A stretch of DNA of 61,745 nt, the filler included, from Sphacelaria rigidula (taxonomy: Eukaryota): assembly GCA_964200075.2 (NCBI GenBank). It is 10 parts of 10 records of this genome, joined end to end, with 100 filler letters (N's around TTAATTAATTAA, not from the genome) between each part and the next. Parts side by side here need not be neighbours in the genome. Positions count along the whole stretch, not along the records: positions 49,478 to 55,561 come from CAXNAA020022346.1; 9 more parts are not named here. One strand, written 5' to 3'. A program made the translations under genes and the position numbers. The notes beneath the pieces are model-generated. The model saw only the letters and a program-made list of their open reading frames with translations, searched no databases and was not told the DNA's origin. Positions 6,086 through 55,661 of the stretch are shown piece after piece; positions within the stretch are counted from its first letter, which is position 1, and the number at the start of each line of letters is the position of its first letter.

Positions 6086-6185
6086 NNNNNNNNNNNNNNN
6101 NNNNNNNNNNNNNNNNNNNNNNNNNNNNNTTAATTAATTAANNNNNNNNNNNNNNNNNNNNNNNNNNNNNNNNNNNNNNNNNNNN
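6086..6185. other. Artificial contig spacer N44-TTAATTAATTAA-N44 (same spacer at 12271-12370, 18456-18555, 24641-24740, 30826-30925, 37010-37109, 43194-43293, 49378-49477, 55562-55661)
   Basis: Nine identical 100-nt spacers with a six-frame stop linker. The segments between them are 6085,6085,6085,6085,6085,6084,6084,6084,6084,6084 bp. Confidence 0.98.
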
Positions 6186-10793: not shown

Positions 10794-12370
10794 GTACGTC
10801 GAGAACCCTATGGGAGAATGAGAGCGAACGGATGGTGCATGTCTGGAAATTACTCCATTCTCCGGAATGCGTACGTTCCGTCACTTTGTGGATGATGTCC
10901 TCCTTTCTTCAGAAATGTAGGAATATATACAGTTGTGTCTGATAGACACATGAGCGATCACAAGCGACACGACAGCCAAGTACCTGTCAAGAGTGGTCCC
11001 TGAAAGTTTGCTTTGGCAAGATCCACTGAAGAACGACTTGATTCATTGCTTTCTCATTCGGTCCGGCCGACTTAAAGTCACTCGTGTCCGATGGATTACC
11101 GTCTATGACAAACATGTTAGAAACGTCGTTTCATAGAAAATGTGCGACGTAGCAGTACCTCACCAGGTTTTCAATTACGTCCTCTTTATCGGCGCCAAAG
11201 ACGCCGCGAACGGCCTCACCCTCACGCGTGTGGCTAAACACGCGCACGCAAGCAGCCGTGACGCGTATCGCACGCTCCGACACTGGCCCCCACTCAAGCT
11301 CTGACCCCGAATAGTTTCACTCTCTCCACACTACAGCGCCCGAAGAATGGCAGTTGTCATTATTTTCGAACTATGTGATAGAACACAGTCCACGGCATCT
11401 TCGTAAGAGCGCCGGGTGAGTGCCATGACCGTGCCGCGGAACCTTCATGATGCCCTCATAAAGGCACCGCAGGGCCGCCATGGCAGTATCGTGAAGGTAT
11501 CGGGCTATGGCTGGAACTACCATCGTACTACTGCTATTCTACTTCCATGGGCTACTCCTTTCATGGCAGCACGATGCTAACAATGACATCTCCATCGTAT
11601 TGCCGTCATGTGACCGTCATACACCACCATAGGATTATCACGGAGGTACATTAACACCTCCACAGCAGAAGTCTTGTATAACGCAAACAAGAGTGAACGA
11701 AGTGGAGGAGAATCAAGAGCATCACCCTATACATGTACAGACTATTCGTACACTTTTACTAAGCCACCAAGTTCGTGCTCCTGCTTGCTCTGTTACGTAC
11801 ATCGACTGCCGAGGTGGGAATTACCAGGATCTTGCTTGCCAGGATATGAAAATCCCTGGCCACACCGTCACTAACGGGTCCCCAAAAGATCGATGAAATA
11901 CCTGTGCCTGTGCTTTGACATTTGCCTCTCGTGTATCTCCCGTTATACCACGAGGCGTGGTATCCCAAGTAAAGTTCCGCCATGATACATTGTGCTTGTG
12001 CACCGCAAGCTACCATAATGATACCATCGTAGTGTCGTTCTAGAGTCTACTGTCCACCAAGATGCTCCCCCTGGTAAGATACGGATGCGTCGTCAATGGT
12101 CAAACGACTAAGGCAAGCAACAAATGAGTACGCTTCTTCCCTCCCCGTCTCCCTCACCTCTAGACTCTTGGGTTGGCGTCGAGTGGCAACGGCGCTGTAA
12201 AAACAAGCCACCAAAACCTAGACAAATGTACAGACTGCCACTGTACATATACCGGGGACCGCCACTAGAANNNNNNNNNNNNNNNNNNNNNNNNNNNNNN
12301 NNNNNNNNNNNNNNTTAATTAATTAANNNNNNNNNNNNNNNNNNNNNNNNNNNNNNNNNNNNNNNNNNNN

Positions 12371-18455: not shown

Positions 18456-19014
18456 NNNNNNNNNNNNNNNNNNNNNNNNNNNNNNNNNNNNNNNNNNNNT
18501 TAATTAATTAANNNNNNNNNNNNNNNNNNNNNNNNNNNNNNNNNNNNNNNNNNNNCCTATTCATTTTTACGGCCAACGAGTAGCCCAACGAGTGCGAGTG
18601 CCACGAGTCACACTCGTGCTCGTCCGACCTATGAAACATTGGCTGAAGACAACGCGAAATAACGAAGCACCAGTGACAAGAAGAGAGATAAAAAAAACAG
18701 GGAAACCGATAGAGACACCAGATCAAGGACTTCAAAAATAGTGCCTCTAGTAAAAAAATCCGACCGGCCCTTCCCAGGGTGGCAGACCAAAATGTCGATA
18801 GTGTGACTCGGAGCACCCTTTTACTCATGAACTGCAACACTTTGCTCTTTGTGTTCGATCCGCGGGGTTTCGTTTTATGTTGGCGTTTGCTTCGTCCGTC
18901 ACATGCGCGGTTCGTTCTCGTGCGTGCGTATATATGTGTGCTTGGTGCTTGATGTTTTTTCAATTTTTCAATTTTTCTTTTTTGTTGTCAAGTTTCAACT
19001 TTTCCTGTCTTCTC

Positions 19015-23091: not shown

Positions 23092-25793
23092 TATTGCACT
23101 GTAACATGAAAAAAACGAATGGTCCAGTATACCAAGCGTTGTTGCTTACATATCACGAGTTAACCCCCTGGGTGCCAGAGGTCACAAATGGGATTTAAGT
23201 GAACCTCTACTGGGCTGTGCAGTATTATCAAATCTATTACTAGGATAAGGCACATCACCCTTGCTGTTCGATGTGTGTGGTATGTGCGAGCTGGGCCCGC
23301 CAACAATGCTGGGAGTCGAACGACATTGCCATACCTGAGTTCATCAGTTGGAAGGTTGATTTTTGACACGATATTTACGCCAAAACGCTGAAAGTAACGT
23401 CGGTTTGAAGTTTATGGAGAGATGAGGAGGGAACCTACCATCCCTCGATGAAAAAAACAGTAGGTCGGGCTGCCTCCATGAATCTTGAACTTGCGTGCAG
23501 AGAATCCTTTGAAATTGTGGATTCAAACGCCTGAAATTGAAGATTCCACGTTGTGTGTGACGCCGCTGCACTCGATTTACGGGGATTGGGAGACTTCCAC
23601 ACGGGTGGAAGGTTACGAGTTCGAATCCATACACGTTTTTTCTTGTGCGGAATCTGGTTCCGTCGTTGAGCTTTTATCTTACGCAGTACATTTTGCTTGT
23701 GGTTTTTTCAGCGGCAGAGCGTGTCATCAGCGGGTTGGTCTGCAGTTCACAACAACATATTTAGATCGGACTGATTCGGGAAGCTGAACAGTTGTCGTGT
23801 GCCGAAGGAGTGCAGGTTTTTTGGTTGGCCCAGCTAGCTCGTGCAGCGAACCCAACGTAAACCCGTCTTCTTTATTTCCATGTATTACTGTAGACACAAT
23901 GAGAAAAACAGTTGTACAATCCCGTTTTTTTTTTACTTCTTCCTATCCATTGCCCTAGAGCCGACCACCTTTGTTTTCGGACCAGAAACGGTTATCAACA
24001 CCCCTCTGTCTGGTTTCGTATGCAGTAGTAGTTGTCTTATGGAATATTCTCGCATGCTAGTCGTTGACACTCGAAAGTACTAGAGTCGGTGAGTCATGTC
24101 ACGGTAGTAGGAGTTACACATTTGGGCCCGGAGTGTCTTTTTGAGAGGCTCCTGAAGTTTGGAGCTCCATCAAAGTGCGGGTCACAAAATTCCCGTTTCA
24201 ATACTCATTCGAGATAACCCTACGTGGCCCATTGGAGTCCTATAATGGTAATGATGGCGCTCAATGTCGTTTCCCGATCCACCCACTCGATCGCCTAGAC
24301 ACTTCTTTGCTTGGCGACTTCGTTGGCCGACCCTGTAGGCCCACGACGCTACATGTCCATATGGCGCCGATGGATAGACCAACAGCGTGAGGGTCGACAA
24401 AAGTCAGCCAGCAGCATTGATGCGGATACAGACTTTCGCTCGGGGTGTGTTCCGTCTGGGTAACATAAAACAACACACGACGACGACGATACAACGTAGA
24501 GCAATGATGTTGTCTCTGGCCGCGTATCCAGAGCTGTGGCCAATGCCGGAGTAAGCTACCCTCAAAATATCTACCTCCGTTCCCCGTCCTCCGACGAAGG
24601 CCATGGCCTTTTTGTCGGTACGGCGTGGGGAGGGTCTTTTNNNNNNNNNNNNNNNNNNNNNNNNNNNNNNNNNNNNNNNNNNNNTTAATTAATTAANNNN
24701 NNNNNNNNNNNNNNNNNNNNNNNNNNNNNNNNNNNNNNNNGTATCTACGCGATCGAGGGGCATTAGGCCGACAAGAAAGTCATTGTGCACCATCGCTGAA
24801 AGCGTGGAGAAAGTACTGTTTTGAGCTCGAACCTCATTTCATTGATGAACCTCATTTTTTAGAATCCTCTGTTATGAGCTGTTCGTTATACCCTCTTTTT
24901 GCTGAATAAATAACTCTACAGATCTTGTAACAAAATATTTTGGAAAATTTCATATTGGGAGTGCCTTCACACGGTTGCTCACAGTGAGTATGTCGAGAAA
25001 ACGCCATACAAAATTCTGGTGGAGGTGCTAGGGTTTGCAAATGCTGTACAGGATGTGTCACAAAGAGTGTGAAGAACCCCGTGCAGCACGTCCTACAGCG
25101 TGCCATCTGTCCACGTGTGAAATCTCCCAAAATGTTCTCTTCATCTAAAAACCCAACATGTCGGCAATCAGGTTCCAAATTTGTATGGGTGTAGTAGTTG
25201 TCAATAGCTACCTGTAGGTGAAGGAGTGAAACTTATTTCGAAGATTTGGTGTCGATACGAATATTTTAATTTTCCGGGTTATCATCCTCAATGAAAAATC
25301 CATCCCAAATTTGTAAAATCCCGTGTTTGTAGGTCATCAATTGAATCGGCATCGATTTCATTCGGAAAAAGTATGCATGATCCACATGGACTAACCTCGC
25401 GGTCTAAGAATTACCGCCCCAGATGACAGGGGAAGATGCGCGCGAAGAACTTGGGATCCCAGCCTCTGACATTCCGACCCCCCCGCGCCCATGGTGCTTC
25501 TGCTGGACGGTCTGACGTTTCGGTGTTTACTCAACACCTGAACACCACAACGCCACCCTTGACCGAAAACACACAACTGCGTCGAGTCGGTAAGCGTTGG
25601 TGCGTAGGTTACGAGGTGAGAGGTAGTCGTGAAGTAGCCATTATTCTTCCTGTGCATTTTAGCTTGGACTTTTCTATATGTTACGGATTTATTGATCATT
25701 TTCCCGTCGACTAGGTTCCATGTGTCATACTTCGTCATGCTTGGTATCCCACTGCCTACCCTGATGTCTTCACAACGTTTCGGGACTAGCATT

Positions 25794-28700
25794 TGTGACG
25801 AAATCACGCCGTCACGTTGAGTATATAGTGATGATATGGATGATGACTTGGGACCTGTAGTGATGATATAGATGACGGCATGGACACAGGGGTCATACCC
25901 TGATGTGGTTTATGGAGCTTGTGTGCCTGGGTGGCACTCCAGGATAACAAAGGTGTTGTAAAGGCTAACAGCTGAAACCTGAGGCCAGTGGAATTGGGGA
26001 GTCCTTCAACAGCATTAGACGCTGCAGTACTAGCAACCTGCTGGCGTGACAATATCGATATTAGTGATAGTGCTAGTCGTGCTAGTAGTGCTATCGGTAG
26101 TGTCTGCTGGAATTTTTCCAGTCGAGAGGAGTCTGGACAGCTTCGGACATATTTCTTCACGGACGCGTGAGGAGGGTTCAAGCTGGGGTAGCTGTAAAGG
26201 CGGCTGGCCCGTGATTAATCCAGACTGGAGACTTGCCGGAGCTGCGTGCAGCGGGAGTTTATAGGACCCCACGGCTGTGTGGTGCGGCAGCGAAGGCAGG
26301 TGTGAACTGTGGAGTTCGAGAAGGTTCAGAAGCTTTCGATTAGGTCCGCTCGGAAATGTCGACTACAGAGGCACCGACCGAAGAACCAACGGAGACGACC
26401 GTACCCTCAGTTGTTCTGAGAGAAGAGTTGTGGCCTCCCAGTCACGGGAATTTGCATTCTGAGTGTGCTTCTCGTTCGTTTTATACGAAACATGTGGAAT
26501 ACAAGAAGCGGGTGGAGCATGCGAATGCGGGGGGTGCGGTAAGGCATCAGGTGGTATCCATGGCGCAACTCGTGCCTCCCCCCCCCTCCAACGCGTTTTT
26601 ACGAGAATATTCCACGAGAAGAACACAATAATGCCGCTGCAATTGGCTGCAACGATCAAGAAGCATGCAGGGCATGCGGCAGGCGCTGAGGTAGAGCTAA
26701 CCCAGGCGTCCGCGGCCGTGGCGAAGGCTGTCGCCATGAACCACAAGGGGAAGACCATGCGTGAGAGGGTGGAGCCAATCATGGAAAAGTTGGAGACATA
26801 TTTTTCCGAAAATCCCAACGTCGAGATGGTTTATCGTTTCTCCGATGGGAAATTCCGTCCAGGGTTCGCTGCGGTGATCACGAAAGTGATGGTGGAGGGT
26901 CTGGCACCGGAAGAATTCAAACAGGCCGTGCTTGTGAAATTACAGCACGAAACCAATTGGAAGCCAGACCCGTACTTATTATGGATACCATGGTGACTGA
27001 GGCTCAGGCATGGCGGAAGATTGAAGTATTCGGGAAATCACCCACTTCGTCGCCGCAATCTTCGAGCTCGCGTAACCGCGGATCAAAATCCACAGGCAGT
27101 GCCGCCGCCAACATCACTTGCTTTCAGTGTGGCCAGGTAGGCCACTACGCACGCAAGTGACCAACACCTTTCAAGGGGGAGTCTGGGCAGACGAGTGCCG
27201 CACGCCCTCGCAATCACAAAGGAGGAAAAGGTAGTCGGGGTGGTGGCGGAGGCGGATCCTCCAGCGGTGGAGGTGTGCATTCGAGTTCCCAGCAGCAGTA
27301 GCAGCAGAGGCAGTGGCGTCAGCAGGGGTCCGTTTCTGGGTTCGGCTCAGCCGCAGGGGCTGCTCCTCCGCAACGGGCGGCGCAGTTGGGACCGACCACT
27401 CAAGTGTCGGGCTCGGTGCCGGCGCCGCCGGCAGTAGAGCAAGGCGAGGCGCCTCTTGCTGAGCCGGTCGGATTTCAGCTGAAATCTGGATCCGCTGCTG
27501 CGTCGTCCGGAGTACCGCTGCAATTTGGTTCTGCGGGCCGGGCTTCGTACCCGCCGGTGGTGCCGGTTACCCCAGCGGGGGCGTCTATGCATGCGCCGCA
27601 CGCGCAGCCGTGGCGCCAAGTGGGGATCACGACAAATCAGTCGGCGGAGCAGGTGCCGGTCGAGTATCAAGAAAAATATATTCCTGCAGAGTTATATCTC
27701 CCAAATCAACGGGCGCGGGGAGCCATATCGATCAACGCTGTGTTGGATTCAGGCGCACATTTCGCGAGCGTGTCGGTGCTGATTGTGGAGATGCTGGAGC
27801 ATCTACTCCCTGGTGAGAAAATCCGCATTCCTTTCTCGCTCGGGGCGCGACAGGCCAACACCGCATCGGGGCAACGTGTAAATGTCACGGAGCGTACGAT
27901 TCCCCAACAGTTGGCGTTCAGGTTTACCTGGGGGCCAGCGAAATTACCCCCGATATCGTTTGCGATCATACCGGGGACGGATGGTGTCATTCTGTTGGGC
28001 TTACCGACGCTTCGGAAACTTGGCGTCGATCCGTATGATCGGCTGTTAGAGTCCCTAAAAACGCAAATACTGTCGCCCGGTTCAAGTGTCGAAACGCCTG
28101 CTTTTTTGGCCAGTCGCAGAGTGAGCTTGTCGGCTGATGCTCTCCAGGAGGCGGGGGGACAGGTGTCCGAGGAGCGTGATGAGGCGGTGGAACGCTTGGT
28201 GGAGCGTAGCCCCGGTATGTTTATGGAGCCGGTAGAAGAGGAGTCCGCGCGAATGGCTGCGCTGGAGAAAAGCGTGACAGATGCTGTGGCAAATGGCATC
28301 AACGTCTCAAAAGCGGAGCGCTTGCGTGGCATATTGTATCGCCACGTTAACGCGTTTTGTCGTGCGCTGATGGGTGATCCCCCTGCTCGCGTGGAACCCA
28401 GGAGAGTTACACTGAAGCCAGGGGCGGCCGCGGTGAAGGCAAAACTGAGGAGGTATGATCCGGTAAAGTCCAGTTGGTTAGCTTCTTGCATGGGAGCTCT
28501 TATGGCGATTGGGTTGGTGTTCAGGAATCTACAGGCGGTGTGGTCCAGTCCAGCGATGGCGGTGACGAAGAAGGACTTTTTCCGTCTTGTCAGCGATTAC
28601 GGAGCCATCGATGATCAGGTGGAGAAGTCACCGGGTGTCATGCCCAATCAGGAATCCGACATGATAGATCTGTTGAGTGCGCGATGCTTCGGTAAGTTGG

Positions 28701-29727
28701 ACCTCCTACAGGGGTACTAGCAGAAGCCGTTGGCCGAAGAGGCGGAAGAGATATTCACCATCACAACTCCATTTGGCATGTTTACCCCGCAGCGAGTACC
28801 GCAAGGCGTGTTGAATGCTACTTCCTACGGAGTATTTTATAAGGTGTCATGGTAGACCTTTTAGATGGTTTGAAATGCAAGATTTGGGTGGACGATATAT
28901 TTTTCTTCGCGGATACGGAAGACGAACTGTTGGATACGCTTAATGCAACCTTGGCTCTCTTGGAGAGTGTTGGTCTATTTGTAGCTTCCCACAAGTGTAC
29001 CATTTTTGCTAGTGAATTAGTGCGGTGTGGGAAAGTACATTCACACGGCCGTGTCTCGCATGACCCGGTCCGCTTGCAAGGTTTGTCTGACCACGCGTTT
29101 TTATGCAGACTCACAGCTTAATGTAACGGCAGACGTGAAGGATGTGTTTCAGCAAGCCTTTAACCAGGGGCAATTTCAGATGGCTGGGATTGTTCGCGTG
29201 GCAGAGGCAGAGGATCGTTCGTTGATCGTGTTGGTCGACTGGGTTGGTTTTGAAGTCGAGGAGAGTACGTGGGAGCCTTTTGAAAATGTTTTTGAGGCCG
29301 CTCCGGAAACTCTCAAAAAGGGGTTGCGTAAGGTGCCAGTGACTCGTTTCATTGCTGCTCGCATTACGCGTGAGTTTGGTATTCAGTTGTGACTTGCTCA
29401 ATCGTTTTGGCGTTGCCACTGAGTGTCAAGCTTGTTGCTCGATTCTCGTCCAACGCGCTTTTGGGGTGCTGTGACGAAATCACGCCATCACGTTGAGTAT
29501 ATAGTGATGATATGGATGATGACTTGGGATCTGTAGTGATGACATGGATAATGACATGGACACAGGGGTCATACCCTGATGTGGTTTATGGAGCTTGTGT
29601 GCCTGGGTGGCACTCCAGGATAATGAAGGTGTTGTGAAGGCTAACAACTGAAACCTGAGGCCAGTGGAACTGGGGAGTCCCTCAACAGGATTAGACGCTG
29701 CAGTACTAGCAACCTGCTGGCGTCACA
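25794..29727 (+). mobile_element. Ty3/gypsy chromovirus-like LTR retrotransposon with both LTRs (25794-26051, 29470-29727), 4-bp TSD CATT, internally deleted
   Basis: 258-bp LTRs TGTGACG...CGT(G/C)ACA with about 15 differences. Gag has a zinc knuckle (CFQCGQVGHYARK), protease LDSGA, RT (WSSPAM, KLDLLQGY, RVPQG, WVDD), then a direct jump to the integrase tail and chromodomain (RFYADSQL...VLVDWVGFEVEESTWEP). Stops and frameshifts present. Confidence 0.95.
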
Positions 29728-30762: not shown

Positions 30763-31359
30763 GAACAGCCGATCCTAATTTTTGGGGTTGAAACATAATA
30801 TGAGGTTGAAGTCCCATCCCTTCATNNNNNNNNNNNNNNNNNNNNNNNNNNNNNNNNNNNNNNNNNNNNTTAATTAATTAANNNNNNNNNNNNNNNNNNN
30901 NNNNNNNNNNNNNNNNNNNNNNNNNGTTTGGGGAGGGGGGGGGGGGAAGACACAGGGGGGGGGGAGCGTGGGGGCGGGGGAGGTAATGAGAAAAAGGACC
31001 GGTGCGAAGCGGGTATACACTACTGTATTATTGCTCTTCGCCATCACAATTGATGCAAGAGAAACACGATCCGAGCTGACTTCTTGTGTACCACAGCTAA
31101 CGCTTGTCACATGGATCATGACTATTCAGCGTGGGGAGCACAGTACACACTACCCCTTGATTTTCATGGAGTGTACCATATCCAACAAGTTTTCTGAGCC
31201 TGGTCCGGCGAAAACCCGGTGTGCTCTCTCTCTGCTGCATGCATGATCATGAGTACCCCCCCCCCTTTGCGATTCTCGGGAAATTATCAAAGTATGCACG
31301 TGAGGCAGACATGATTCGGGTATTTAGTACTGGGCGGCAGAACCATTGTTTTATTCAGG

Positions 31360-37009: not shown

Positions 37010-37870
37010 NNNNNNNNNNNNNNNNNNNNNNNNNNNNNNNNNNNNNNNNNNNNTTAATTAATTAANNNNNNNNNNNNNNNNNNNNNNNNNNNNNNNNNNN
37101 NNNNNNNNNCTCCCCGTCGCCCAGAATGAGGTTTTCGGGAATTTGGGGCGGTGAATAGCGTATTCCAGTCTGTAAGGCCCCTTGTTCAGTGTGGTGGGGA
37201 AGCGATCTTTAAATAAAGACCAATGATTCGCTTTTACAAACAACGTACGTATCCTGACAGCAACTCAAATGGCTGGACGAATCATGTTTTGACCCATGTG
37301 TGCGTTGTTCAGCAGAACATGCGCAGACATCTACTCACATGACCGTTGTGAAATTCAGGTATAGAGAACCGACACTTCATGTCTTGGGTTCTATAGATCG
37401 GATGGGGTGATGATCTGCGGCACGAACCAGGTATTGATCAAAAGCTCCACTTGCACACATGTCGCCGATGCCCTTTTATTTGCCACTCAGGTCATTGGTA
37501 AATACAAAAGCGAACTCCTTCCTTCTACAAAGCCCGCGACGAGAGCTTTCCGTTCAGTGTAGGTCCCGGTGCGTAGGGCGCACGACCTCACCGAAGGTAG
37601 CACCAATAAACTCCTACTAAGGATATCAGTGACACCAACAACTTCCTCCATGTATTAAAATTTTCGGGTTGGTTGTCGCCCTGCACACTCTTACGCACTT
37701 TGCCCTCAATTCATCTCTTCACCGAGCAGCCGTTGGGCTCATCATGAGTATCGTGGTACAGATATGAACCGAGCGTGGACGATGGACACAGGTTGTAGTC
37801 CACTGGAATCCATGTGGAGGAGAACGATATATGTGGCTACGGTCGAACTTGTTCAGACAGACTCACTCAC

Positions 37871-41370: not shown

Positions 41371-43293
41371 GATCTCAAACGGGACTGATTTCGCGCACCT
41401 GTTGTGCTTTTTAGCGGAACTGCTATCGTTTTCATCGAAACTTGACGTTTTTTCTTCTTCTATCGTTCTTCTCCGCTCACTTCCTTCGCCTTTCTTTTTG
41501 TATTCAGTTCTTGTATATTTCCATGATTTTTGTCCACAGTTTACCCCGTTCGCTGAGTTCATGTATTTATTGCCTCCCACTTCCTTTCTTCTGTCGAGGG
41601 TGTTCCACTTTAATGTACCCTGGGCAGGTCTGCCTTAAACACATAGTGACCACGGCTGAATCTCTCAGGGATCACGCAATGTGCGACATGCCATCAGCAT
41701 CCCATCAAATTGACACTTTCGAAGGCTGGCATGTATTACTCTCGGCATTTAGGGTTTTGCGTGAATTGTAGGGTACGTCTACCTTGTATATAATGACCAC
41801 AGCTAGGTCTCTCAGGAACCACCTAATTTGCGAAAAGCTATCAACCAATCATTAAATTGACACTTTCCAAGACTTGCATGTTTCACTCTCGGTATTTGGG
41901 TTTTCGCGTGACTTTTAGAGGGGACAAAAGCTACGTTGACGCGAATGAACAAAGGTTTCCAAAAATCTGTACCGCACGACTTCATCAATCTCTATTTCAT
42001 TTTTTCGGGCTTCGACATTACAGGTGTGTCCAGCCATTGCGCGGGCATGTCAACCTTTCCATTTCACTGCTCGAAGAAGGTTGTCAAGCGATTCGGAAAC
42101 AGTTGGTCTGGTGTTCGGGGGTGAGGACAATGCCAAAACTTGATGCGTCTGTTACTGTTTCAAGAAGGCATAACCCGTGTGAAGCGTCTGTTCTTGTTTC
42201 AACAAAAGACAGCCCGTGTGGACAGCATGGAGAGGTACGGCAAGCCGCGAGAGCTAAAACCAACGTGAAATGAGCACTTGCTATCGAAACGTGTCCATCT
42301 AGTCCATTTTTCAGCATGCTTCTGCTGGGGCAATAAAACAAGGATATGCAGCAGTACCCCACGTTCAACGTGGGAAATTTGGTGGTTTCTTCGTAATTGG
42401 CGATTTTTTGTCGTTCATTTCTTTGCCCCCACTTATCACATTGAGAACCTGAAGATACTAGTATCCGCTCCATATTCGATAAAAAGAAATCATCTGTGTT
42501 GAATATATTGAGAGACTTACGACCTGGCTGGTCATCGGGGGCCCTGCCACTTCTCAGCCCAGATTCTGACTCTTTTCATTTTCGGTCGATCGAGCCTGTC
42601 CCGATTATGTTTGTCAAGAAATGAAAAGGGTCTGTTTTCTGAAACTATGCCTACTTATTGCACTTGAGCGGAATAACTGTGTTCCACGGTCCATCTAACC
42701 TTCCTCATCAACGGGGTATCTACTCATATCGCTCGATGTCATCGACGACCACTGACTTGGGCACTGGGGGGGGGGAGGATAATCTGTTTATTTCACAAAA
42801 ATCTATCGACTCTAGAAAATTCGAGTTCTATCGAAGAGTATACGCGAGAAAAATCCCAACTTAGGCCATGCCCATTTCGAACGCGGGGTACAACTATATA
42901 TTCGGTAGGATACGAGTACGCTGCTTCGGGTATGAGACTCCTCACAGAACTTTCAGACATGTCGGGTACCGATGCGGAAGGTTTACAGAACACACAGAAC
43001 CTCTTGGGTAGGGTATGGACGTCGGTCGGAAACCGTATCCGCACGCGGGTATCTCTACAGGGAATACCCAGGGGCCCACGCAAAAGTTATCTCGCATAAC
43101 TCGGTTTCCATGTTTTTGGTTTAGACCCCTCAGGGGGGAGGAAGGGGGGTGTACTCATGATCATGCATGCCATAGTCATAAGACCATAGACCTNNNNNNN
43201 NNNNNNNNNNNNNNNNNNNNNNNNNNNNNNNNNNNNNTTAATTAATTAANNNNNNNNNNNNNNNNNNNNNNNNNNNNNNNNNNNNNNNNNNNN

Positions 43294-44990: not shown

Positions 44991-47281
44991 GTGGTGTCTC
45001 ACAGCCTCGAAACGCTGGATGCTTCTGGCGGGAGGCTAGGATTTCTGCCTGACGAAATTCGAGAGCGACCAGAGATGCGAGGGCTGACCGACGTTAACTT
45101 GAGCCGCAATCAGCTCTTCAACAGCGATCACGTGTTCGGTGTTCTTTCTTGTCTGAGGCAGCTCAAGTGAGAAATACGGAATGGATGCAGAGTGGGTATT
45201 CGCGCGGGAAACAACATTGCATGCGTGGTAGGGCCCAATAAAACATAGCACGGTTTTTGGTGCACTCAAGAGTATGCGGTCGAACTGCTGAACGGATCGT
45301 CGGACACTCATTTTTCGGACGCGTTGTGTGTGTGTGTCTGAGTGTATGTGTGCGTTGTGTATGTGCATTCGTTTTCGACGGTGCTTTTTTCGTATACAAC
45401 ACAGAGTATAGTAGAAATCAACAAAACAAAATGCATTCGAGCAGTGCATGTTTTGGGCTAAACCCACGCGGTGGACCAGTTCGGATCGAAAGTGCTTTCG
45501 CGAAGGCTTGTTTCGGCAACCTTTTGCAAGGGACCGTCGCGGACCGCTGTGGGTTACATCACTTAGAGCACAGGGTATATGAAAGGGTCAAATATCTGCA
45601 CACTTGGATGTCGCGTATTCTTTTCTGTTGTTTTCCTTGAGATAAAAAAGAAATCTCACACAACACTTGCCCCGCGAGCCGATTCGTGTGGCGATTACCC
45701 GAAGGCTCGGCTAGACCGCCTCACGGTAGTCATGTGGGGTAGTTGCTTCGAGCGTTCGGAAAGCTCTGCTCAAGGCAGTTCGGCGATTGAACCCGCTAAA
45801 ACCCCCCATCAGCTTGGTGCAGTGCACGCGCTGCCCTGCTCTTATACGATCCAGTTCTGGTATTCTCTCTGTACACCGTTTGATCACGAATGGACCACGA
45901 CCCAGAACCATACGAGCCTGCCTGCCCGCCATCACTCTTTCCCCGCACACAATTGTGTAGAGTACGCTGTTTTTATTACAGTACAGCTACACGTACAGTG
46001 CTGCTGTGCTATTTCCTCTTGACGGTTAGTCGTCGATGCGTGCCTTGTGCCCGAACACGAACATTTTTTTCATCATCCTGACCGTCTATCCGACACATTC
46101 GCGTACAGGAAGCTCGACCTGACGGACAACTTTCTGAATGGGGTGCTATCCGCTTCGGCCGGAAAACTCAACGAGCTGGAACATCTTCGCCTAGACGTTA
46201 ATCAGGTTTTGTTCGCGCTGCTATAGCTATCATCCTTAATTGTTTTCGTGAACGGCGCCGTTTGTGGGCAGCTTTACGTCGAAGGCGACAAAAAAGGCAG
46301 CCTATCATCCCTTTTCGCTATTCGGGGTCTGTATATATATATTATACCGAGATTAACCAGAAAAGAAAAAAGAAAAAAGAAAACATGAACATAATAAGCA
46401 AGTGCCTGAGGGATCGTACAATAGGATGATGAGCACCATCGCTGGCTTGAACTAGGTGGGTCTACTTTTCGGTGAAACCGGATGGACAATGCTCGCAGGT
46501 CACCTGAACATTTTGATTTTCGAGTCTCAGGCGGTAAACGAATAGTGTTAGGCGTGTTCATAGAATATCACATATACTCCGACTGGTCTCAGAGTAGCTG
46601 CGGACGTTCAACGGACGTCCCAGTTCGGTATGATGCGTGTTTTTGCATGGATGGAGCTAACCTCCTTTGATCTGCTATTAAACAAACGTGAAAAGCAAGA
46701 ACAGAAACAAAAAAGCAAGTGGAAGTCATCTCTTTTTCAATCGATGTTTGCGGGTAAAAAATAGTCTGATCTGCTGTTGGACAAGCGTGAAAAGCGAACA
46801 TACAAAGAAAAGCGATTGGAAGCCATGTTCTCCTTCATCGATGTTTTTGCGAGTGAATATTAGGCTCGGGAATATGTTCTATATGTTCTGTATATCTAAT
46901 CTACTATAGATCTCAATATATGTTATACATTCTATAGATTTCAATAAACAGTATATTATATATTTTATAGGTCACCGTTTTCAACACGTTTCTCGTGTTG
47001 TATGCAACATTTTTTTCATGTTCAAATATTATCCCGACCCGGTTTTGTCTGATGTCCTGCCAGCTTACGGAGCTCCCGGCTTCGGTGGACGCATGGACGG
47101 AATTGCGCGTGTTTAGCGCGGCGGACAACGCTTTAACAATCCTGCCGCCACAGGTCGGAATCACGTGATGAAATAATTGCTCGAGGTTTTATTTAATACA
47201 ACAGTGGAGGGTAAATGCAAAACAATTCAATAATACATACATACATACATACATACATACATACATACATACATACATACA

Positions 47282-47315
<34 letters not shown>

Positions 47316-48291
47316 CATAGGTACATACTCAGTTTCATTTTTCTTGGGAACGTCCATCATGATACATACATACATACATACATATATACATAGGTACATA
47401 TTCAGTTTCATTTTTCTTGGGAACGTCCATCATGAGACCACGGCTGAACCCCTGGGGGACCAGTTAAAGTGCGACAATCATACATACATACATACATACA
47501 TACATACATACATACATACATACATACCACACCCTGGACAATAGATCGCGTTGTCAGAAAGTGTACTGGGTACAGTATAGGATCCATTGTCCATCGCAAT
47601 AGACACAGCAGTCAATACTGTACGCAGTACTCTCTTTGACAATGTATACTATTGTTCAGGCTGCGAAACACATACATACATATATATATGTATATATTAT
47701 AATTTAAAATATCTATATGTATACGTGGAAATCGTTTCCACGAATGATGATGTTTAGATTCAAAGCATGGGGGATATATCCAAGTTTGCAAACTCAACCA
47801 CCTAAGGACAACTTTGTGATCGGCGATGAACGGTAAGCCCTAGAGTGACAGGCGGCAGACCGTAGTGCATGCATAGCGGCTGGGGCGACCCTGGTTTTCA
47901 GCTTTTTGATAAAAGCATACACCAACCACTGCACCAGATCGCAAGTGAGCGCTGCTTCCAAACAGTAAACGTTTTATTTCACGTTAACGCTGATTACTGA
48001 TCCTCTATTTTGTACGATTTTTGTGGGGGAAACATTCAATGTCTAAATACGGTTGAGGCGTGTTTTATTTACATCAAGAACGACTTACAGAATCAAAACG
48101 TCTTGTGGGTATTTTTAACGGCATTTCTACTATCGTGCTCGTGTTGTACACAGGTGGGCGACTGGCGAAATCTAGAGGACATCAACGTCCGCAACAACGA
48201 GTTACGGATGCTTCCGCTGGAGATGGGTAGGTGGTCAAAGCTAAAGCGAGTACTAGCAGGCGGGAATGGGATATTAGAACTGCCGGCAGAG
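44991..48291 (+). CDS. Leucine-rich repeat protein, internal exons 44991(or 45005)-45166, 46109-46205, 47064-47153, 48154-48291
   Basis: Phase-consistent GT-AG splicing: LETLDASGGRLGFLPDEI...LTDVNLSRNQLFNSDHVFGVLSCLRQLK|KLDLTDNFLNGVLSASAGKLNELEHLRLDVNQ|LTELPASVDAWTELRVFSAADNALTILPPQ|VGDWRNLEDINVRNNELRMLPLEMGRWSKLKRVLAGGNGILELPAE. Repeated LxxLxLxxNxLxxLP. Confidence 0.88.
47233..47527 (+). repeat. (CATA)n microsatellites flanking a short retroposon 3' end (47430-47480)
   Basis: CATA arrays read directly. catgagaccacggctg.acccctggggg...agttaa.gtgcgacaatca also occurs at ~58067-58115 with a (TCAA)n tail and inverted at ~34820-34876. Confidence 0.8.
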
Positions 48292-49539
48292 GTGAGAATA
48301 TCAACAAGTTCGGAACACCAGCATTCCTAGGGAAATCGAGCCCTTGCGTTTTTGAACTCCGCAGCCCGGAAGCGATCCACAAGCGAAAAGCGGCCACCCG
48401 CAAAAACCGTGGGTGTCCTTGAGCATGTTCGGTCATTGCGAGAAAACGTCTACGTCCCGAGAACGCAAGATGGATTTTTATGTGACGACTGAGGCTTCTC
48501 GGACGTGACGACTCCCCTCCGGATGTACACGTGCACACGCTCCCTGCTTGGTGATTTTACGGTGCTACGACGTCCGAATTCACAGACCCATAAGAGAGCG
48601 AAAAAAAAAACTCGCCTGCCCCATACACGCAGGCCACTCGCAAAGCTTCGCACATGTTTGAAATTATGTTTCAAGGCGACGGGAAGGGTGGGCTGGGGAA
48701 ACGGAGTTCTAACCGGCATGGCGCCGCTTCGGCCCTTATAAGGTGTATACCGGAACTGAGGTTTGAGGCTTGGGTCGCAACCTGCTTCCATGGTCTTACT
48801 TCTTGTACGTCCTTCTATCTGAATCCCCCCTTGGGGCCCGCCGGAGAGTTCCTGGGGCCCGCTACTGGTTCTGAGTCTGGCGTCTATGTCACTGTATCAA
48901 GTTGTTTTCTCCTTCCTCCACTTTCCTCCTGACCCCTTTCTCCAGTTTCATGCGAGCGGTCGAACGCGTTCGTCCTATGTATCGTGAATACGTGATAATC
49001 GACCTCGACCGGATTAGCAGCAGATGAGTTTATTTTTGCGATAGTCAACCGATCGATCGAAGAATCAGTTAATCAATCAAGCGACCTCCAGGTCCCTCGA
49101 ACTTGATAAAATATTATCGGTGCTCCTGCGATAAAGACCCTCAAAGAGATGGCAGCGCTAGAATCGCGAGTACTGAAGTGTGTCATAGTCTCCCTCGTTG
49201 CAGAACATGGAGTTGGTTGGACAGTAGTGAAAAGAAGCAGGGTCCAAACAACCCCTGTGTTGTGAAAAGGGCCTGAGGTTGACCTAGGCAAAGCATGCCC
49301 CCCCCCCCCCCCCGCCCGCCGACCCCCCGCCCTAGGGGCGCGGGGCGAACAGGCAAACGGCGCAGGGAGGCGACAAANNNNNNNNNNNNNNNNNNNNNNN
49401 NNNNNNNNNNNNNNNNNNNNNTTAATTAATTAANNNNNNNNNNNNNNNNNNNNNNNNNNNNNNNNNNNNNNNNNNNNAGAGATGGGTTGATCCCTTGAGA
49501 CCACGGACTCATCCCGACGAAGGGGAGGGGTTCAAAGTG

Positions 49540-52500
49540 TGATGGAAATGACAGAGATTTTGCCACTTCGACTACGGGTTATCTGGTGGCCGAAAATGGA
49601 GGACATGGTCAATCGGAGGGGCTGTTCCGTCACGTCGTCGGTGGTAACGTGGTAGGGCGGGGACTTGGTCGAGTAGCTGTTGAGAACGTACTGTGTGAGT
49701 CCGGCAGGCAGGTACTTGGGCATGTTGCTTGTATCATGCGGGTTCGTGCAGGGTTTGCATCTGTGCACGGAGACGCAGGGTTTGGTGTCCTTTCCCTGGA
49801 AGTCGCGAGGCAAGTAGAGATAGAAACACGGGATCTTACAAATTGGGGATGAATCTTTTAGTGGGGATGAGAAACCCGGAGAATTAAAACCTTTGTATCC
49901 ACACCAACTCTTCGAAATATGGTTCCATTTCTTCACCTACTGATAGCTATTGACAACTGCTACACGCCATAATTTGTTTTTATTTCGATCACCGAAATTT
50001 TGGGGTCTTAGGTGCAAAACCAATTATGGGGAATTCCGGGTGTCCGAACGGACGCCAAAATGGCTCCGGGATTGGTTTTTCAATTAGGACCCCAGAATTT
50101 CGGTGATCGGGATCCAAATTTTTATGGCGTGTAACAGTTGTCAATAGCTATCAGTAGGTGAAGAAATAGAAGCATACGTCGAAGATTTGGTGTGGATACG
50201 AAGATTTTAATTTTCCGGGTTTCTCATCCCCAATTTGTAAGATCCATCCCCAGTTTGTAAGATCCCGTGCTTAGAGCAGTTTGTCACCAACGGGTTTATC
50301 ATCTGGTGATGATAACGATGGTCCGACTGTCAGGATCTCGAATGGTCCTTTCCAATTGAGGGACAATTTTGTCTTCAAACTTGTTTCGTTGGCTGTCTTG
50401 TTGGTGCCTTCGTGGCTGTCTTGCTGATGCCTTGGTGGATGGTCGACAAGCTGTTGTAGATCCAAACCCAATCACCAATTTTTCAGTTGGGGCGTTTGTG
50501 CATGAGGTTGTAGGGAGTAGAGTTAGATCTCTCTGGGCGCGAGGCGTTGATAGCGTGTTGTTCGCGCACGAGGGTAAACGGTTCGTGTTGTCGTGCATGC
50601 GTTAGCTCGTGGTAGAATATCTGGTCTGAATCCAACCCTTGGTGGCCATCAAACGTGTGTGTGTCGCTCAAACACGGTGATGGGCAGCCAAGGGTACCGT
50701 CCAAGATGGAGTTCGTTTGGAGAAAGTCCTGTGGCGGCATTAACCGAGTTGCTGTAGGACAACATGATGTGCGAGAGATGTAGGTCCGAGTCATTTTGGC
50801 GGTCATTGACAACCATAGAGAGCATCTGGGCTATGGTGTGATTAACTCTTTCGGTATCACCGTTACCCTTCGGGTGGTAGGCGCTCGTGGCAATTTTGCG
50901 GATGCCCAGGAGCTTGTAAAGCTCATCAGAGAGATCAAAGCAAAAGTGCTGAGCATTGTCTGAAAGGAGTCGCTTTGGGCAGCCGTAGTGCTTAATGTAG
51001 TTGTGGACCAATATGTCGGCCGTTCCTGCGGCAGCGAAATCTACGGCGGTCACCGCGTGCATGGATGCGTAGCGGCTGAAGCGGTTAGTGAAGAGTAAGA
51101 TGTAGGTGTGGCCGCGACCTGCGGTCGGTAGATGACCAGAGTAGTCAAAGGACACAAGGTGGTCTGGCTCGTTGGGGAGTCCCATAGAGATGACAGACCA
51201 GCGTACTGTCTGTCGTGAAGTCTTTCGGGCTTGGCATTTGAAGCATCGCCGAATCCAGAAGCGGGTTGAAATTTCCATGCCAACCCACCAGTAGAATCGT
51301 TCCAAGAGGGCTAGGGTGCGGGTGACGCCAAGGTGATATGACAAATCTGTGTGGCAGCCTTTCGTGACCCAGGGGCGCATTAATAATGAGACATATATGC
51401 GCGTTGGTTCGTCATCGAGTAGTCGTGCGTGGCGTCCCGTGGTTGAGACGGAAATTGCGCCTATCAGGGGCGTGTCGCGACGCACGAGTAGTTGTATACC
51501 TTCATCCGTAGTAAAAAGGGTGCCTTTACGCACGAGCTCGTATACGTCAGGAATAACTGGTGGTGGCAGTGTGCCAACCGGGGCCAGAAGAGCGGATGGA
51601 AAAGGGACTGGACATTTGAGTTATAAGTACCGGATGGCTGCGCGACAAAGAGGTTCCGCGTTGTGTTCGTGAGCCCAATCGCGGTGGGAGTAGCTGGCGA
51701 GAAACTCGCGTAGTTGACCTTTCGCTGGCGAGCCGACCCAACATGGTGGGGTAGGCAGCGGGGGAATAGGCGACGGGGCAGAAGTGCCGACGTCAATATC
51801 TACCCTGGGAGCAGGAACTACGCCGTCAGCTCCATGCTCGGGAGCGCGATAGATGTTGGTGGCGCCGTTATATACGGCGGGGCTGTAGTAGTGCGCGGCG
51901 AAGATTGTCCGCGGCGCGTAGTGCACGGTGCAGGGGTGTTCGCGGAGCGTTGCGTGCTGGTGCGTGGGACCTGTGTTGCGTGGCTCGTGGAATTTGCAGG
52001 TTTTATCGGTGGCGGCGGGGCACTCGGGGTGGTGCGGGCGACAGACCGGGAGCGCGTGTTGTCGGAGATTAGGTGGGTGACTGAAGGTGCCTCCGTGAAG
52101 AGCTTCGCGCGAGTACCGAAAGTGCGGAAATCGACAAATCGGAGATCGTGGGCGCTAACCCACCCAAGACGGCGTCATATGGTGGAGGGCGAGGTCCTCC
52201 CATATGCATATCAGTTGCTGGGCACTAGAGGTCGAGGGCGTAAACGGGCGTTGAAAAACGTCTAATCGCGTCAATTCCAGATTTATCGGGTTCCGTTAAA
52301 CGGCAAGCCGGGCTGGAATCCGCGGCCGTAGGCGGCATGGGTAGGCGAGAACGAAGATCAGCGTTCCCGTTGGTTTTGTCAGAACGGTGCTTAATAGTAT
52401 ACTGGTATGCTGTTAGAAATTCCAACCATCGTTGTACACGTGGATTGTGTTCGCCAACCTTGGCGAGTTGTTCGAGTACCCCATAGTCCCTATATATCTC

Positions 52501-53330
52501 AAAGGGCACGTGGAACAAATGTTGTCGAAGGCGCTTAATGGCCAAAGTGATTACTCCGCCTTCCAGTTCTAGCGGGCTCCAATAATTGGTCTCGTTGGGC
52601 AGGGTAGCACGGCTGATATAAAGGATGGGTCGGACGGAGCACATCAACCTGAGGCTGACTCAAAACTCCTCCAAATCCGTTTGTGCTGGCGTCAGTGTGG
52701 AGTTGGAAAAGACGAAAGCCATCTTGCGCTGCCTCCCAATCAGGAAAGCAGAGTGCCGGCTTTTCGGTGAGCGTCTTGAGCAATTCGCGGGTGATATGCT
52801 CCATATCGGTTGTGAAGGAAAACACAGCCCCTTTCTTCAGTAGCTCAGTAAGGGGGCGGATCCGTTTTGATAGATTCGGCAAAAATTTGCAGTAGTAGGA
52901 TAGTCCGCCCAGCAATGAGCAAAGTTGAGAAATATTAGTTGGCATCGGCAAGTCAGTCATCGCCTTGACTTTGTTTGTATCTGGATGCAGGCCTGCTGGC
53001 GAAATGGAATGCCCCAGTAAATCCAAGTCAGTCACACCAAGGCGAGCTTTGGATGTAGACAGTTTCAAATCGTGTGATCGTAGGCGATAGAGAAATTCTC
53101 GTAGAGTGCGGATATGTGCCATAGGTGAGGGATCGAAAGCGATAGCGTCATCCAGATATATGATGATGTGCTCGAGGCCCTCGAAGGGTTGAAAGCACCC
53201 CGGGGCAGTGGCAGCGCCTTGTGGCATTCGAAGCCACTCGTGGGGTCTGGACGAGGAACAAAAGGCCGTAAGTGGGACTGTGTCAGGGTGAATAACATTC
53301 TGGAAGAATCCTGAAGCGAGGTCGAAGGTG
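49540..53330 (-). mobile_element. Degenerate Ty3/gypsy pol (RT, RNase H, integrase); no LTRs visible
   Basis: RT (MPQG, YLDD, LLGGLSYY), RNase H (LHTDAS, YISRATL, ELEGG, RVQRWLEFL), integrase (CH...HLGVTRT...CFKC, SFDY, LLSDN, AYHPKGNGDTERVN) and a WKGPF motif. Frameshifts and stops; interrupted by a MITE at 49827-50269. Confidence 0.92.
49827..50269. mobile_element. MITE with long TIRs (CACGGGATCTTACAAA...), inserted in gypsy integrase; right-arm copies at ~25180-25325 and ~53345-53554
   Basis: cacgggatcttacaaattggggatg...catccccagtttgtaagatcccgtg, with arms extending ~150 bp or more. It splits the integrase C-terminus DKLL|YLxLP. Confidence 0.88.
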
Positions 53331-54334
53331 GTCCGATCGGCTCACCTGAATCCCCCCAAATTGGGTTTTGATCCAGGACCCCAACATTCCAGTTATCGAA
53401 ATCCAAATTCGTATGGCGTGTAGTATTTATCAATAGCTACCAGCAAGTGAAGAAATGGAACCATATTTCGAAGATTTGGTGTGAATACGAAGATTTTAAT
53501 TCTCCGGGTTCTCATCCCCAATAAAAATCCAGCCCCAATTCGTAAAATCCCGTGTGTATTATGTGTGACTTATTCCCGACATCAACAGCACACGATGGAG
53601 TCTTTCATGGATTGCCTGACCCGGGTGACCGTTTTTCGCGTATATCGGAAGCACCCCACAAACTTCAAATACATGCCGCAACATAAACGTATAAATGCCT
53701 AGCAGGCCAAGTTGGTCTATGTGCGCAAACGCTCAAACGCCCTTACCCGGCGAAAACATGGCCGATTGTTTCCCTCTCTGCAGCGGGCGCAGTGTCGAGG
53801 CTACTGTCCGCGCTCCAACATACTGGTCGACTTGTTGAGTTACGGAAAAATCACGTACAATTGCTTGACTGCCCACGCAAACTCCATTTTTTCATCTGAG
53901 CAATGCTACGGTAGGGATGCACGTTTTGCGCGAAGTCTTGTCTAGTTCAGAGGCTTCAAACGATTCTAGATGCACAAGAATATGGATCAGGACATCCCCG
54001 TTTGTAAATTCAGTCGGGATATCCCCAACACATTGGAATAGTAACCCTGGCGTACTCTCACATATTTTCATGAGTCGTGTTTTGGATGAGATCAAGGGCC
54101 CCTAACAATTCTAACCTCAGAAAATATTTGTGCACCCCTACCGCAGCATCACTCATCTGCATGCCAGAATTGCACATGCGCGGCCACATACGACGCCCTC
54201 CCCCGCCCCTGCGAGTGAAGACAGTGTCGTATGAGGTGGACAGGGACCACATCACTTACTTGTCTATCGATACACTGACCAAACCACCAACGTTTTATAG
54301 CGAAAGATAAATCAGGACGTGATACAAAAACACC

Positions 54335-54860
54335 TGTGACGGTTTAAGAGACTACCAACTAGAGTACTGACGAGTCAGCGCTGACTCGTCAGTAGTCTAG
54401 TTGGTAGTCTCTTAAACCGTCACAAAAGTTAATCGCTGGTTCGATTCCCGTCGGATGCACTTTCTTTGAAGAAAAAAGAGGAGAGAAAACCTCTGGGAAA
54501 AACTTGACCCCAAGAAGAGAAAACCTCAGTAGAGAATTGGCCCAAACAGAGAAAGGGTGGGGTATAGCCGGGTGGCTATGTTAGGAGTCGACTGCTAGGG
54601 ACCCTAGTGCACACACACTCTGGAAATGAGTGGGGGAGACGAGTAACTCAAAGATACGGTGAGAAGTGACAACACTAGAAGTCCCGATGGCGGTCGACAG
54701 AGCGCTGGCAAGGGCCGTCGCCCTCCTCGGAGTGAAAGTGACGGGGATCAAACCCCCACAACTAACTTTTGTGACGGTGTAAGAGACAACCAACTAGACT
54801 ACTGACAAGTCAGCGCTGACTTGGTCAATAGTCTAGTTGGTAGTCTCTTAAACCGTCACA
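54335..54860. mobile_element. Non-autonomous element with palindromic 90/91-bp terminal repeats, two convergent tRNA-like heads and 4-bp TSD CACC
   Basis: CACC|TGTGACGG...CCGTCACA|CACC. Terminal repeats 54335-54424 and 54770-54860 are each self-complementary. A-box tagtctagttgg and B-box ggttcgattcc / ggtttgatccc occur on both strands. Confidence 0.85.
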
Positions 54861-55108
54861 CACCCCAACAAGTTCCTGTTGATATTGCTTCATCTTTACA
54901 TCGAAACATGATGAGATATTCAGAGACACTGAGCGAGCGCGGTAGTGAAAACGGCATACTCAACACCAACGGCGACGGTGACAAACTATTTACGCCCGTG
55001 CGCATCCTTTTAACCTTTCACCAAGAGCAAAGCTACGGTAGGGTTGCACTTTTTGCGCGAAATCTTGTCTGGTTCAGGCGCTCCTAACAACTCTGGATCG
55101 TACAGCCG

Positions 55109-55561
55109 GTCGCCCCGGTGGCTCAGTTGGTAACCTCGCAACCTTTTGATGGTTGAGTAGGGGGGTTCGATTCGCGGAGTAATCTGGACTCTTTTCGCAC
55201 ACCATGCTCAACAGTGCAGAGCGACTATGTCGTGGGTACACAAAGTTCGACCTAACGATTGGCGAGAGGGAAAGGGACTACTGAACCCCTCTCGCGATAA
55301 AAAATAAAGACAAGCACCGCAAAAGGAAGGCGGGGTACTAAAAACAAACAAAAAAGAAAAAGGGAAAGGGACAACTGGACCCCTCTCGCGATAAAAAATA
55401 AAGACAAGCACCGCAGAAGGAAGGCGGGGTACTAAAAACAAACAAAAAAGAAAAAACTCCTGTGTTGACCTCCCTCCCGTGTGACCGCGGCTGATGCGCC
55501 CACATATACCGAAAGGTGTAGACTGGTACCCAGAATAAAAGGGACGACAGCACACAACACA
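55109..55561 (+). mobile_element. tRNA-SINE family A, full-length with an internal ~94-bp tandem duplication
   Basis: A-box tggctcagttgg, B-box ggttcgattc, body as 20122-20487. The ccctctcgcgataaaaaataaagacaagcaccgc block occurs twice. Confidence 0.82.
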
Positions 55562-55661
55562 NNNNNNNNNNNNNNNNNNNNNNNNNNNNNNNNNNNNNNN
55601 NNNNNTTAATTAATTAANNNNNNNNNNNNNNNNNNNNNNNNNNNNNNNNNNNNNNNNNNNN

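Follow-up and report, generated by a model that had tools for sequence, protein, structure and literature searches.

The DNA stretch analysed here (the window; 61,745 bases) comes from the Sphacelaria rigidula assembly GCA_964200075.2 and is a chain of ten contigs of 6,084-6,085 bp, sorted by size. On the contig that occupies positions 49478-55561 (CAXNAA020022346.1) lies a 526-bp element (54335-54860), which ends in palindromic, tRNA-like terminal repeats and is flanked by a putative 4-bp target site duplication (TSD). The observation behind the original prediction is confirmed, and the element represents an abundant mobile-element family of unusual architecture. The mechanism offered in that prediction is partly supported, but not in its symmetric form. 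All of the sequence features that it listed were found at the coordinates given; they are summarized below (PBS, primer binding site; Pol III, RNA polymerase III).

54331-54334: left copy of the putative TSD, CACC, read directly (single copy; a 4-bp match has a chance of about 1/256)
54335-54379, plus strand: left outer arm 'a', beginning TGTGACGG, the reverse complement of the left inner arm
54380-54424, plus strand: left inner arm 'a-prime', a tRNA-like 5' part (about position -6 to 39) with an A box at 54393-54404 and an anticodon-loop-like end, CCGTCACA
54425-54460, plus strand: remainder of the left tRNA-like unit, with a PBS-like AAAGTTA... stretch, a B box at 54438-54448 and an acceptor-like 3' strand
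54461-54740, plus strand: non-coding, purine-rich core with imperfect direct repeats and a stem
54741-54769, minus strand: right inverted-repeat extension, an inverted and decayed copy of the tRNA-like 3' part, with its B box at 54754-54744
54767-54770, plus strand: the only run of at least four T on this strand of the element, overlapping the first base of the right repeat; candidate Pol III terminator
54770-54814, plus strand: right inner arm 'a'
54815-54860, plus strand: right outer arm 'a-prime', 46 nt with a 1-nt insertion, ending CCGTCACA
54861-54864: right copy of the putative TSD, CACC, read directly

The termini of the element read TGTGACGG...CCGTCACA, and the context of the duplication in this one copy is AACACC on the left and CACCCC on the right; if the final A of the element is counted with the flank, the TSD can also be read as 5 bp (ACACC). 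The TG..CA ends and the 4-bp duplication are both of integrase type. The original prediction described each terminal repeat as a loop-less palindrome. This is true of the left repeat (54335-54424), in which 45-nt arms with 0 nt between them pair at 44 of 45 positions (98%), but the right repeat (54770-54860; 91 nt) is a decayed and poorer palindrome (92% over 37 nt, with the 1-nt insertion). As direct repeats, the left (90 bp) and the right (91 bp) copies are about 92% alike. A 29-mer motif of the arms occurs four times in the window, always within the element, and matches were seen in 0 of 100 shuffles. Moreover, the inverted repeat continues past the 90-bp palindromes to about 54452 on the left and about 54741 on the right, for a total of about 117-121 bp (matches of 42/45 and 42/45 in the arms and 22/28 in the extension). 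The segment 54425-54460 is thus within the inverted repeat, beyond the direct repeat.

Between the repeats, the core contains imperfect 15-nt direct repeats (54479-54493 and 54513-54527) and the 22-bp stem that had been predicted, in which 54587-54609 folds with 54673-54698. The overall structure of the predicted transcript (54380-54768) is not unusual, with a folding z-score of -1.08. Neither a PBS nor a polypurine tract (PPT) of the usual kind is visible in the element, in line with the original prediction; TGG is absent within 11 nt of the left repeat end and first appears where the B-box region begins. When the element and one CACC are removed, no open reading frame (ORF) is restored in the flanks, and a protein database search with the minus-strand ORF 54825-54959, which runs from the flank into the outer arm, gave no candidate sharing three words. 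Self-BLAST found no additional copy of the element across the other 61 kb of the window. An exact search with a 22-mer of the arm, in one scan each of viral, metagenome and genome contig collections, gave 0 matches; had the host been represented there, a family of apparently thousands of copies should have been hit.

Contigs from four public runs (X1, X2, X5 and X6; three studies) were aligned to 53600-55500 with a likeness of at least 80%. There are eleven public runs for the region, of which 8 contain some part of it and none contains half of the sampled words. The depths below are summed over contigs and are not equal to copy number. The summed depth in X1 is as follows.

53600-53855, unique DNA: 68
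54176-54239: 45.8
54240-54303: 0
54496-54687, core: 4.0-5.7 x 10^5
54880-54943: 20
54944-55007: 0

Across 54304-54879, the summed depth in X1 ranges from 1.3 x 10^5 to 1.5 x 10^6, and both X5 and X2, in which unique DNA has a depth of 31 and 4.8, respectively, repeat this pattern over the element. Run X6, which may be RNA, has a low depth of about 300-800 on the element, to which no weight is given. The ratio of element to unique depth is three to four orders of magnitude. Since the depth is 10^5-10^6 over the whole element, its core included, against about 68 in the single-copy flank, the element is not a one-off but belongs to a very abundant, high-copy mobile family with subfamily variants, and the original prediction was right to expect a repeat family. 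Beyond each end of the element lies unique sequence, and over a single 64-nt bin the depth falls there from about 10^5-10^6 to about 0-46, indicating that the repeated unit ends where the palindromes end.

At 19 or more positions of the element, over 85% of the depth disagrees with the letter of the window, and at 18 of these 19 the share exceeds 95%; a further 116 differences exist across the 1,901-bp stretch that was aligned. Since most of the depth differs at these positions, a family consensus exists, from which this copy is at least about 4% diverged. The majority letters are T or A at three sites where this copy keeps CpG (54589, 54685 and 54692), which points to subfamilies; a variant replacing 54503-54551 was also found among the family contigs. 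At 54364 the window has G and most family contigs have C, which would make the left palindrome perfect. The element is quite possibly, though short of probably, one old and diverged copy of a family built from the head of a tRNA-derived, Asp-like short interspersed element (SINE).

Contigs assembled from 31-mers cannot cross a perfect palindrome or thousands of differing flanks, so that the low depth of the outer arms and the absence of loose ends at 54335 and 54860 are uninformative. None of the rows listed has a loose end at 54335 or 54860 (3173 more rows exist), and none of the 15 joints listed is an empty-site joint skipping exactly 54335-54864 (734 more joints exist); neither count is evidence. 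Three other origins were rejected. An assembly artefact or a single local inversion is ruled out by the family depth in independent runs. Two separate insertions of 90-bp miniature inverted-repeat transposable elements (MITEs) are ruled out because no TSD surrounds each palindrome and the inverted repeat runs past both, and a 5' inversion of the kind made by long interspersed elements (LINEs) is ruled out because it gives no sequence duplication.

The tRNA-like promoter signal of the element is real and well beyond chance. In a scan for an A-box pattern followed by a B-box pattern 38-62 nt downstream, one strict pair was found in the window, on the plus strand (54393 / 54438; spacing of 45 nt), in which the B box is GGTTCGATTCC (54438-54448). 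One further pair with a relaxed B box was found on the minus strand (54801 / 54754; spacing of 47 nt), with the B-box-like sequence GGTTTGATCCC at 54744-54754. Both pairs are inside the element, and the expected number is 0.01 pairs per window (300 first-order Markov simulations). In tRNA numbering from the A box, T8, A14, G18, G19 and A21 are present in the left unit and CCGTCAC occupies positions 32-38. The left repeat boundary thus coincides with the anticodon-loop position, as had been claimed, with GTC as the 'anticodon', and the head is one that we take to be like tRNA-Asp.

The D and anticodon stems of the left unit do not pair, and tRNA finders did not bear out a tRNA at 54386-54459. 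ARAGORN reported 0 tRNA genes at its default, -ps and -ps90 settings; at -ps80 it draws 54386-54460 as a decayed cloverleaf, which is not significant because the same setting makes 45 calls in 61.7 kb. Rfam searches (E<=10) with 801 bases and with 95 bases gave no tRNA match at the element, but this silence says little, because the head of a conventional SINE 250 bp away is also without a match.

The original prediction saw two usable, convergent Pol III promoters, and this symmetry did not hold. In the right B box the invariant C56 is replaced by T, so that the box fits the relaxed pattern only, and acceptor-type pairing in the right tRNA-like unit is almost nil (about 1/7). A run of four T at the far repeat had been predicted for each strand. 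On the plus strand it is present and is the single run of four or more T (54767-54770), but the minus strand has five such runs, four of which (54523-54520, 54502-54498, 54489-54486 and 54477-54472) precede the boundary run. The element is therefore asymmetric, and judging from these motifs, the left unit on the plus strand is the only one that looks like a usable Pol III gene.

The centre of the left palindrome, between 54379 and 54380, is 13 nt upstream of the A box. In the conventional SINE nearby (55105-55470), the 5' boundary of the family (55104-55106, three places at which 334, 286 and 273 X1 contigs have unrelated loose ends) precedes the A box of that SINE, at 55119, by 13-15 nt. As the two heads align in register and the distances to the A box are similar, the palindrome centre corresponds to the expected start of Pol III transcription. 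At the other end, the predicted transcript would finish in ...ACUUU, which is complementary to the bases from 54425 (54425-54436), directly behind the left repeat. This duplex is interrupted in the present copy, and the family majority letters at 54432 and 54760 restore about 12-13 unbroken pairs. Similarly, the majority letter at 54456 turns a G-T of the acceptor-like stem into G-C.

Ends of the same kind are found in an element with long terminal repeats (LTRs) at 25794-29727, on the contig at 24741-30825. Its 258-bp LTRs are 94% alike and have TGTGACG...CGTCACA ends, with a CATT TSD, and it carries a zinc knuckle (zf-CCHC), a weak aspartic-protease match, only the tail of a reverse transcriptase (RT) and then a chromodomain, which makes it a gypsy-group chromovirus with an internal deletion. 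The 526-bp element shares its seven terminal bases, and both have a 4-bp duplication, as the original prediction had pointed out. The two are on separate contigs of one assembly and are therefore physically unlinked, as are all features in separate segments, since the window is a chain of contigs; these are joined by nine six-frame-stop linkers (N44-TTAATTAATTAA-N44) at the following positions.

6086-6185, 12271-12370, 18456-18555, 24641-24740, 30826-30925
37010-37109, 43194-43293, 49378-49477, 55562-55661 (continued)

A check of this chromovirus for a Tf1-like self-priming signature gave just 12-nt complementarities, 20-40 nt behind the LTR. Within the first 23 bases of its LTR, the GTGACG motif is repeated in inverted form 9 nt inward, a miniature of the palindromic end of the 526-bp element.

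Our preferred reading of the 526-bp element, which we put somewhat below an even chance, is that of a self-priming relative of TRIMp3/Helenus that is integrated by a gypsy-type integrase and whose repeats take their limits from the two ends of a Pol III transcript. Pol III would begin transcription at about 54380, the palindrome centre, and terminate in the lone T run at 54767-54770, giving a transcript made of the inner arm, the tRNA-like 3' part, the core and the inverted tRNA-like 3' part. The 3' end of this transcript would then pair with the 12-13 nt behind the left repeat (54425-54436) and prime reverse transcription on its own RNA. In such a panhandle, the 3' hydroxyl of the RNA would stand beside a 45-nt 5' overhang, the inner arm, in a geometry like that of a primer annealed to its PBS. 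Synthesis would first copy the 45-nt inner arm into its complement, which is the right inner arm that follows the T run in the genome, and this DNA would end at the palindrome centre. End-to-end template switches between co-packaged, self-primed molecules might rebuild the outer arms and so finish palindromic repeats at both ends, and a chromovirus integrase recognising TGTGACG ends could insert the product. Transcription, self-priming, the rebuilding of the outer arms and the identity of the helper are what we infer from this layout. Between copying through RNA and movement as DNA, two positional coincidences appear to favour the RNA route: the palindrome centre falls on the expected Pol III start, and the sole plus-strand T run falls on the boundary of the right repeat.

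Several points weigh against this reading. Both coincidences were noticed after the fact, and the run of four T may be a weak terminator in the host. None of the public runs that contain part of the region is recorded as RNA. A single inspected copy supplied the duplication, the precise termini and the palindromes, and blunt end-to-end template switches, which the rebuilding of the outer arms requires, are something that we can only propose. There is no PPT before the right repeat, where the plus strand is pyrimidine-rich (54752-54769), and an inverted repeat that exceeds the direct repeat is what one normally sees in a DNA transposon and not in an LTR element. Bin arithmetic on summed depth gives the whole ends of about 120 bp roughly twice the per-base abundance of the core, and the 90-bp palindromes show no depth excess over the adjoining tRNA-like part. 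This excess of ends fits internally deleted MITEs at least as well as it fits LTR biology.

Among the rivals, movement at the DNA level survives best, although we consider it somewhat unlikely. The element would be a MITE, moved by cut-and-paste or copy-out through an integrase-lineage DDE transposase, either Ginger-like or of an undescribed kind, with specificity for terminal inverted repeats (TIRs) of about 120 bp. Its tRNA-like parts would be SINE relics, and its palindromes would give each end two opposed binding or cleavage sites, a corollary that is also on the doubtful side. TIRs of about 117-121 bp that reach past the direct repeats and the lack of both PBS and PPT agree with a MITE, as do ends about twice as abundant as the core, which are typical of MITE families with variable or deleted insides. 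The TGTNR-type ends, the TIR length and the 4-bp duplication match the description of Ginger elements in the portion of PMC2836005 available to us, and a second foldback, MITE-like repeat is present on the contig of the element. However, CACC, known from one copy, matches neither the target of Ginger1 nor the AT-rich target of Ginger2 given there. A MITE would also leave as coincidence the position of the palindrome centre at the Pol III start, the sole plus-strand T run on the boundary and the promoter that is intact on the left only, and a perfect loop-less palindrome would be unexplained. If the element is a plain integrase-type MITE, it is ordinary, yet a useful example of a transposon end made from tRNA-like sequence.

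It is improbable that there is no autonomous unit at all, and that a pair of SINE heads, rearranged by snap-back or inversion, has spread passively within larger repeats or segmental copies with CACC flanking it by chance. The genome is packed with SINEs, neighbouring repeats reach a summed depth of about 2.9 x 10^6, and the TSD is known from a single copy. In addition, the tRNA-like heads have about 4.4 times the summed depth of the core, so a parent SINE sharing the head may exist. Passive spread does not sit well with the collapse of depth within one bin at both ends next to unique flanks, with a high-copy core that has its own consensus, or with TG..CA ends and a 4-bp flanking repeat, which are jointly unlikely by chance.

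The symmetric model of the original prediction, with two convergent and equal Pol III genes, transcripts of about 380 nt from both strands and priming from terminal hairpins, is very improbable. An inward A box with a B-box-like motif does occur at both ends, and each strand has a run of four T where the far repeat begins, but the T at C56 of the right B box, the four earlier minus-strand T runs and the nearly unpaired right acceptor all contradict equal genes, and the predicted transcripts exclude the outer arms and hence have no terminal hairpin. Scarcely credible is a tyrosine-recombinase element (DIRS or Crypton-like) inserting from a circle, with CACC as the crossover and the joined ends as a palindromic core site: the terminal repeats are inverted and the joined ends would form a perfect 16-bp palindrome, but an internal complementary region of DIRS type was not seen, TG..CA ends with a 4-bp repeat are an integrase signature, and no recombinase gene is among the scanned ORFs of the window.

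Under the preferred self-priming reading, the element might represent a kind of miniature retroelement that is so far undescribed, with repeats set by a Pol III transcript that begins at the centre of one palindromic repeat, ends exactly at the next and self-primes with its 3' end behind the first; we regard this novelty as rather unlikely. It is likewise fairly doubtful that its hairpin-shaped 'LTRs' imitate the termini of a chromovirus residing in the genome and so let the integrase of that chromovirus insert the element, in a combination of a SINE promoter, self-primed replication of LTR type and the symmetry of a MITE. If the RNA route is true, a SINE head can escape its dependence on LINEs by gaining ends that a gypsy integrase accepts, LTR-like repeats can arise without tRNA priming or a PPT, and intermediates join the classes SINE, TRIM (terminal-repeat retrotransposon in miniature) and MITE. 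For annotation, the 45-bp perfect hairpins of such elements resemble microRNA precursors, and the best weak matches of Rfam at the element are microRNA families. The tRNA-like promoters could also seed Pol III binding sites at what are apparently thousands of places in a genome.

The surroundings of the element are rich in other repeats. The conventional tRNA-derived SINE at 55105-55470 has its A box, TGGCTCAGTTGG, at 55119 and a B-box-like GGTTCGATTCG, and contains a 94-bp internal tandem duplication (55267-55360 and 55361-55454; 97%). Its summed depth in X1 is up to about 2.9 x 10^6, and most members of the family have a different stretch between 55155 and 55266. Upstream of the element, a very high-copy repeat at 53898-54154 reaches an X1 summed depth of up to 1.9 x 10^6 and stops sharply on its 3' side at 54154; a second copy of its first 74 nt, with 84% identity, lies at 55025-55098, just before the SINE. 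The foldback or MITE-like repeat mentioned above is about 450 bp long (49824-50272), with inverted arms of 111 nt at 92% and outer arms of 34 nt at 91%. It is without TG..CA ends and has partial relatives of about 80% at 53331-53555 and 25121-25326.

The contig of the element also carries a degenerate pol of Ty3/gypsy type on the minus strand (50649-53341), in which RT and RNase H are located at 52535-53341 and an integrase zinc finger and core at 50649-51620. No gag, protease or LTRs were seen for it, and the region upstream is filled by other repeats. On other parts of the window, a 299-aa open frame with a strong reverse-transcriptase match (RVT_1, E = 1.4e-25) is found on the plus strand of another contig at 17200-18099, and long (ACAT)n microsatellite blocks alternate at 47215-47530 with a 73-bp unit whose copies are 99% identical.

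In the literature, we found no description of perfect-palindrome terminal repeats made from a tRNA-like half; Repbase and Dfam were outside this search, and the family may be catalogued there. By titles and abstracts, searches on palindromic or hairpin LTRs, foldback SINEs and tRNA-like TIRs returned only retroviral LTR-LTR junctions, LTR-finding software, parvoviruses and unrelated topics. Compared with tRNA-derived SINEs (SINE2), the element has the same internal A-box and B-box promoter at tRNA spacing, and its head is in register with that of the SINE 250 bp away. Unlike SINE2, it has no LINE-type, A-rich or simple-repeat 3' tail, its 3' end being a palindrome that ends in CA; it also has a 45-bp inverted arm upstream of the expected start, and its integrase-type ends and 4-bp repeat differ from those of target-primed insertions. 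Because of the missing tail and the integrase-type ends, the element does not strictly qualify as a SINE.

Cassandra elements are of 5S origin and have ordinary, non-palindromic LTRs with PBS and PPT. These TRIMs carry a 5S rRNA-derived Pol III promoter in the LTR, according to the main text of PMC10886601, and resemble the element in that the terminal repeats of a TRIM bear the Pol III promoter of a small RNA gene. Unlike Cassandra, the element has a tRNA-like promoter and palindromic repeats.

In Tf1, the RNA folds back so that its 5' end lies on the PBS, whereas the primer proposed here would be provided by a Pol III transcript at its 3' end. The chromoviruses Tf1, Sushi and Tcn1 prime reverse transcription by their own RNA and not by a tRNA, as described in the portion of PMC6317226 available to us; the element would share own-RNA priming with them, and a chromovirus derivative with matching ends is present in the assembly.

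Ginger1 and Ginger2 have TIRs of 40-270 bp, TGTNR ends like those of gypsy LTRs and 4-bp duplications; Ginger1 targets CCGG or CCGT/ACGG, and Ginger2 AT-rich RTATAY (Bao, Kapitonov and Jurka 2010, PMC2836005, from the same portion as above). The element is like them in its TIRs of about 117-121 bp, which start with TGTGA, and in its putative 4-bp duplication. Its CACC target (one copy) is outside both preferences, and neither tRNA-like nor palindromic ends are described for Ginger in that portion of the paper.

Helenus, or TRIMp3, is a group of miniature, non-autonomous LTR retrotransposons whose LTR contains a Pol III promoter derived from a tRNA (Kojima 2024, PMC10886601). According to the main text of that paper, Helenus elements are 311-1263 bp long, contain a PBS and a PPT between the LTRs and are presumed to use a gypsy helper, and animal Helenus elements have a 4-bp duplication. 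The element shares their small size, TG..CA direct repeats, tRNA-like A and B boxes without a functional tRNA, and high copy number; its putative 4-bp duplication would be as in animal Helenus, and a gypsy helper is presumed in both. Palindromic LTRs are not described for Helenus in that main text. In Helenus the tRNA-like unit is inside the LTR, but the 90-bp repeat here is the 5' half up to the anticodon loop plus its mirror image, and the B box (54438-54448) begins 14 nt past the repeat end at 54424, at the place of a PBS. Also unlike Helenus, no PPT precedes the right repeat, and the inner flanks of both repeats are inverted copies of each other. In summary, although it fails two defining features of Helenus/TRIMp3, the tRNA-like unit within the repeat and the PPT, it is these elements that the 526-bp element appears to resemble most in its working.

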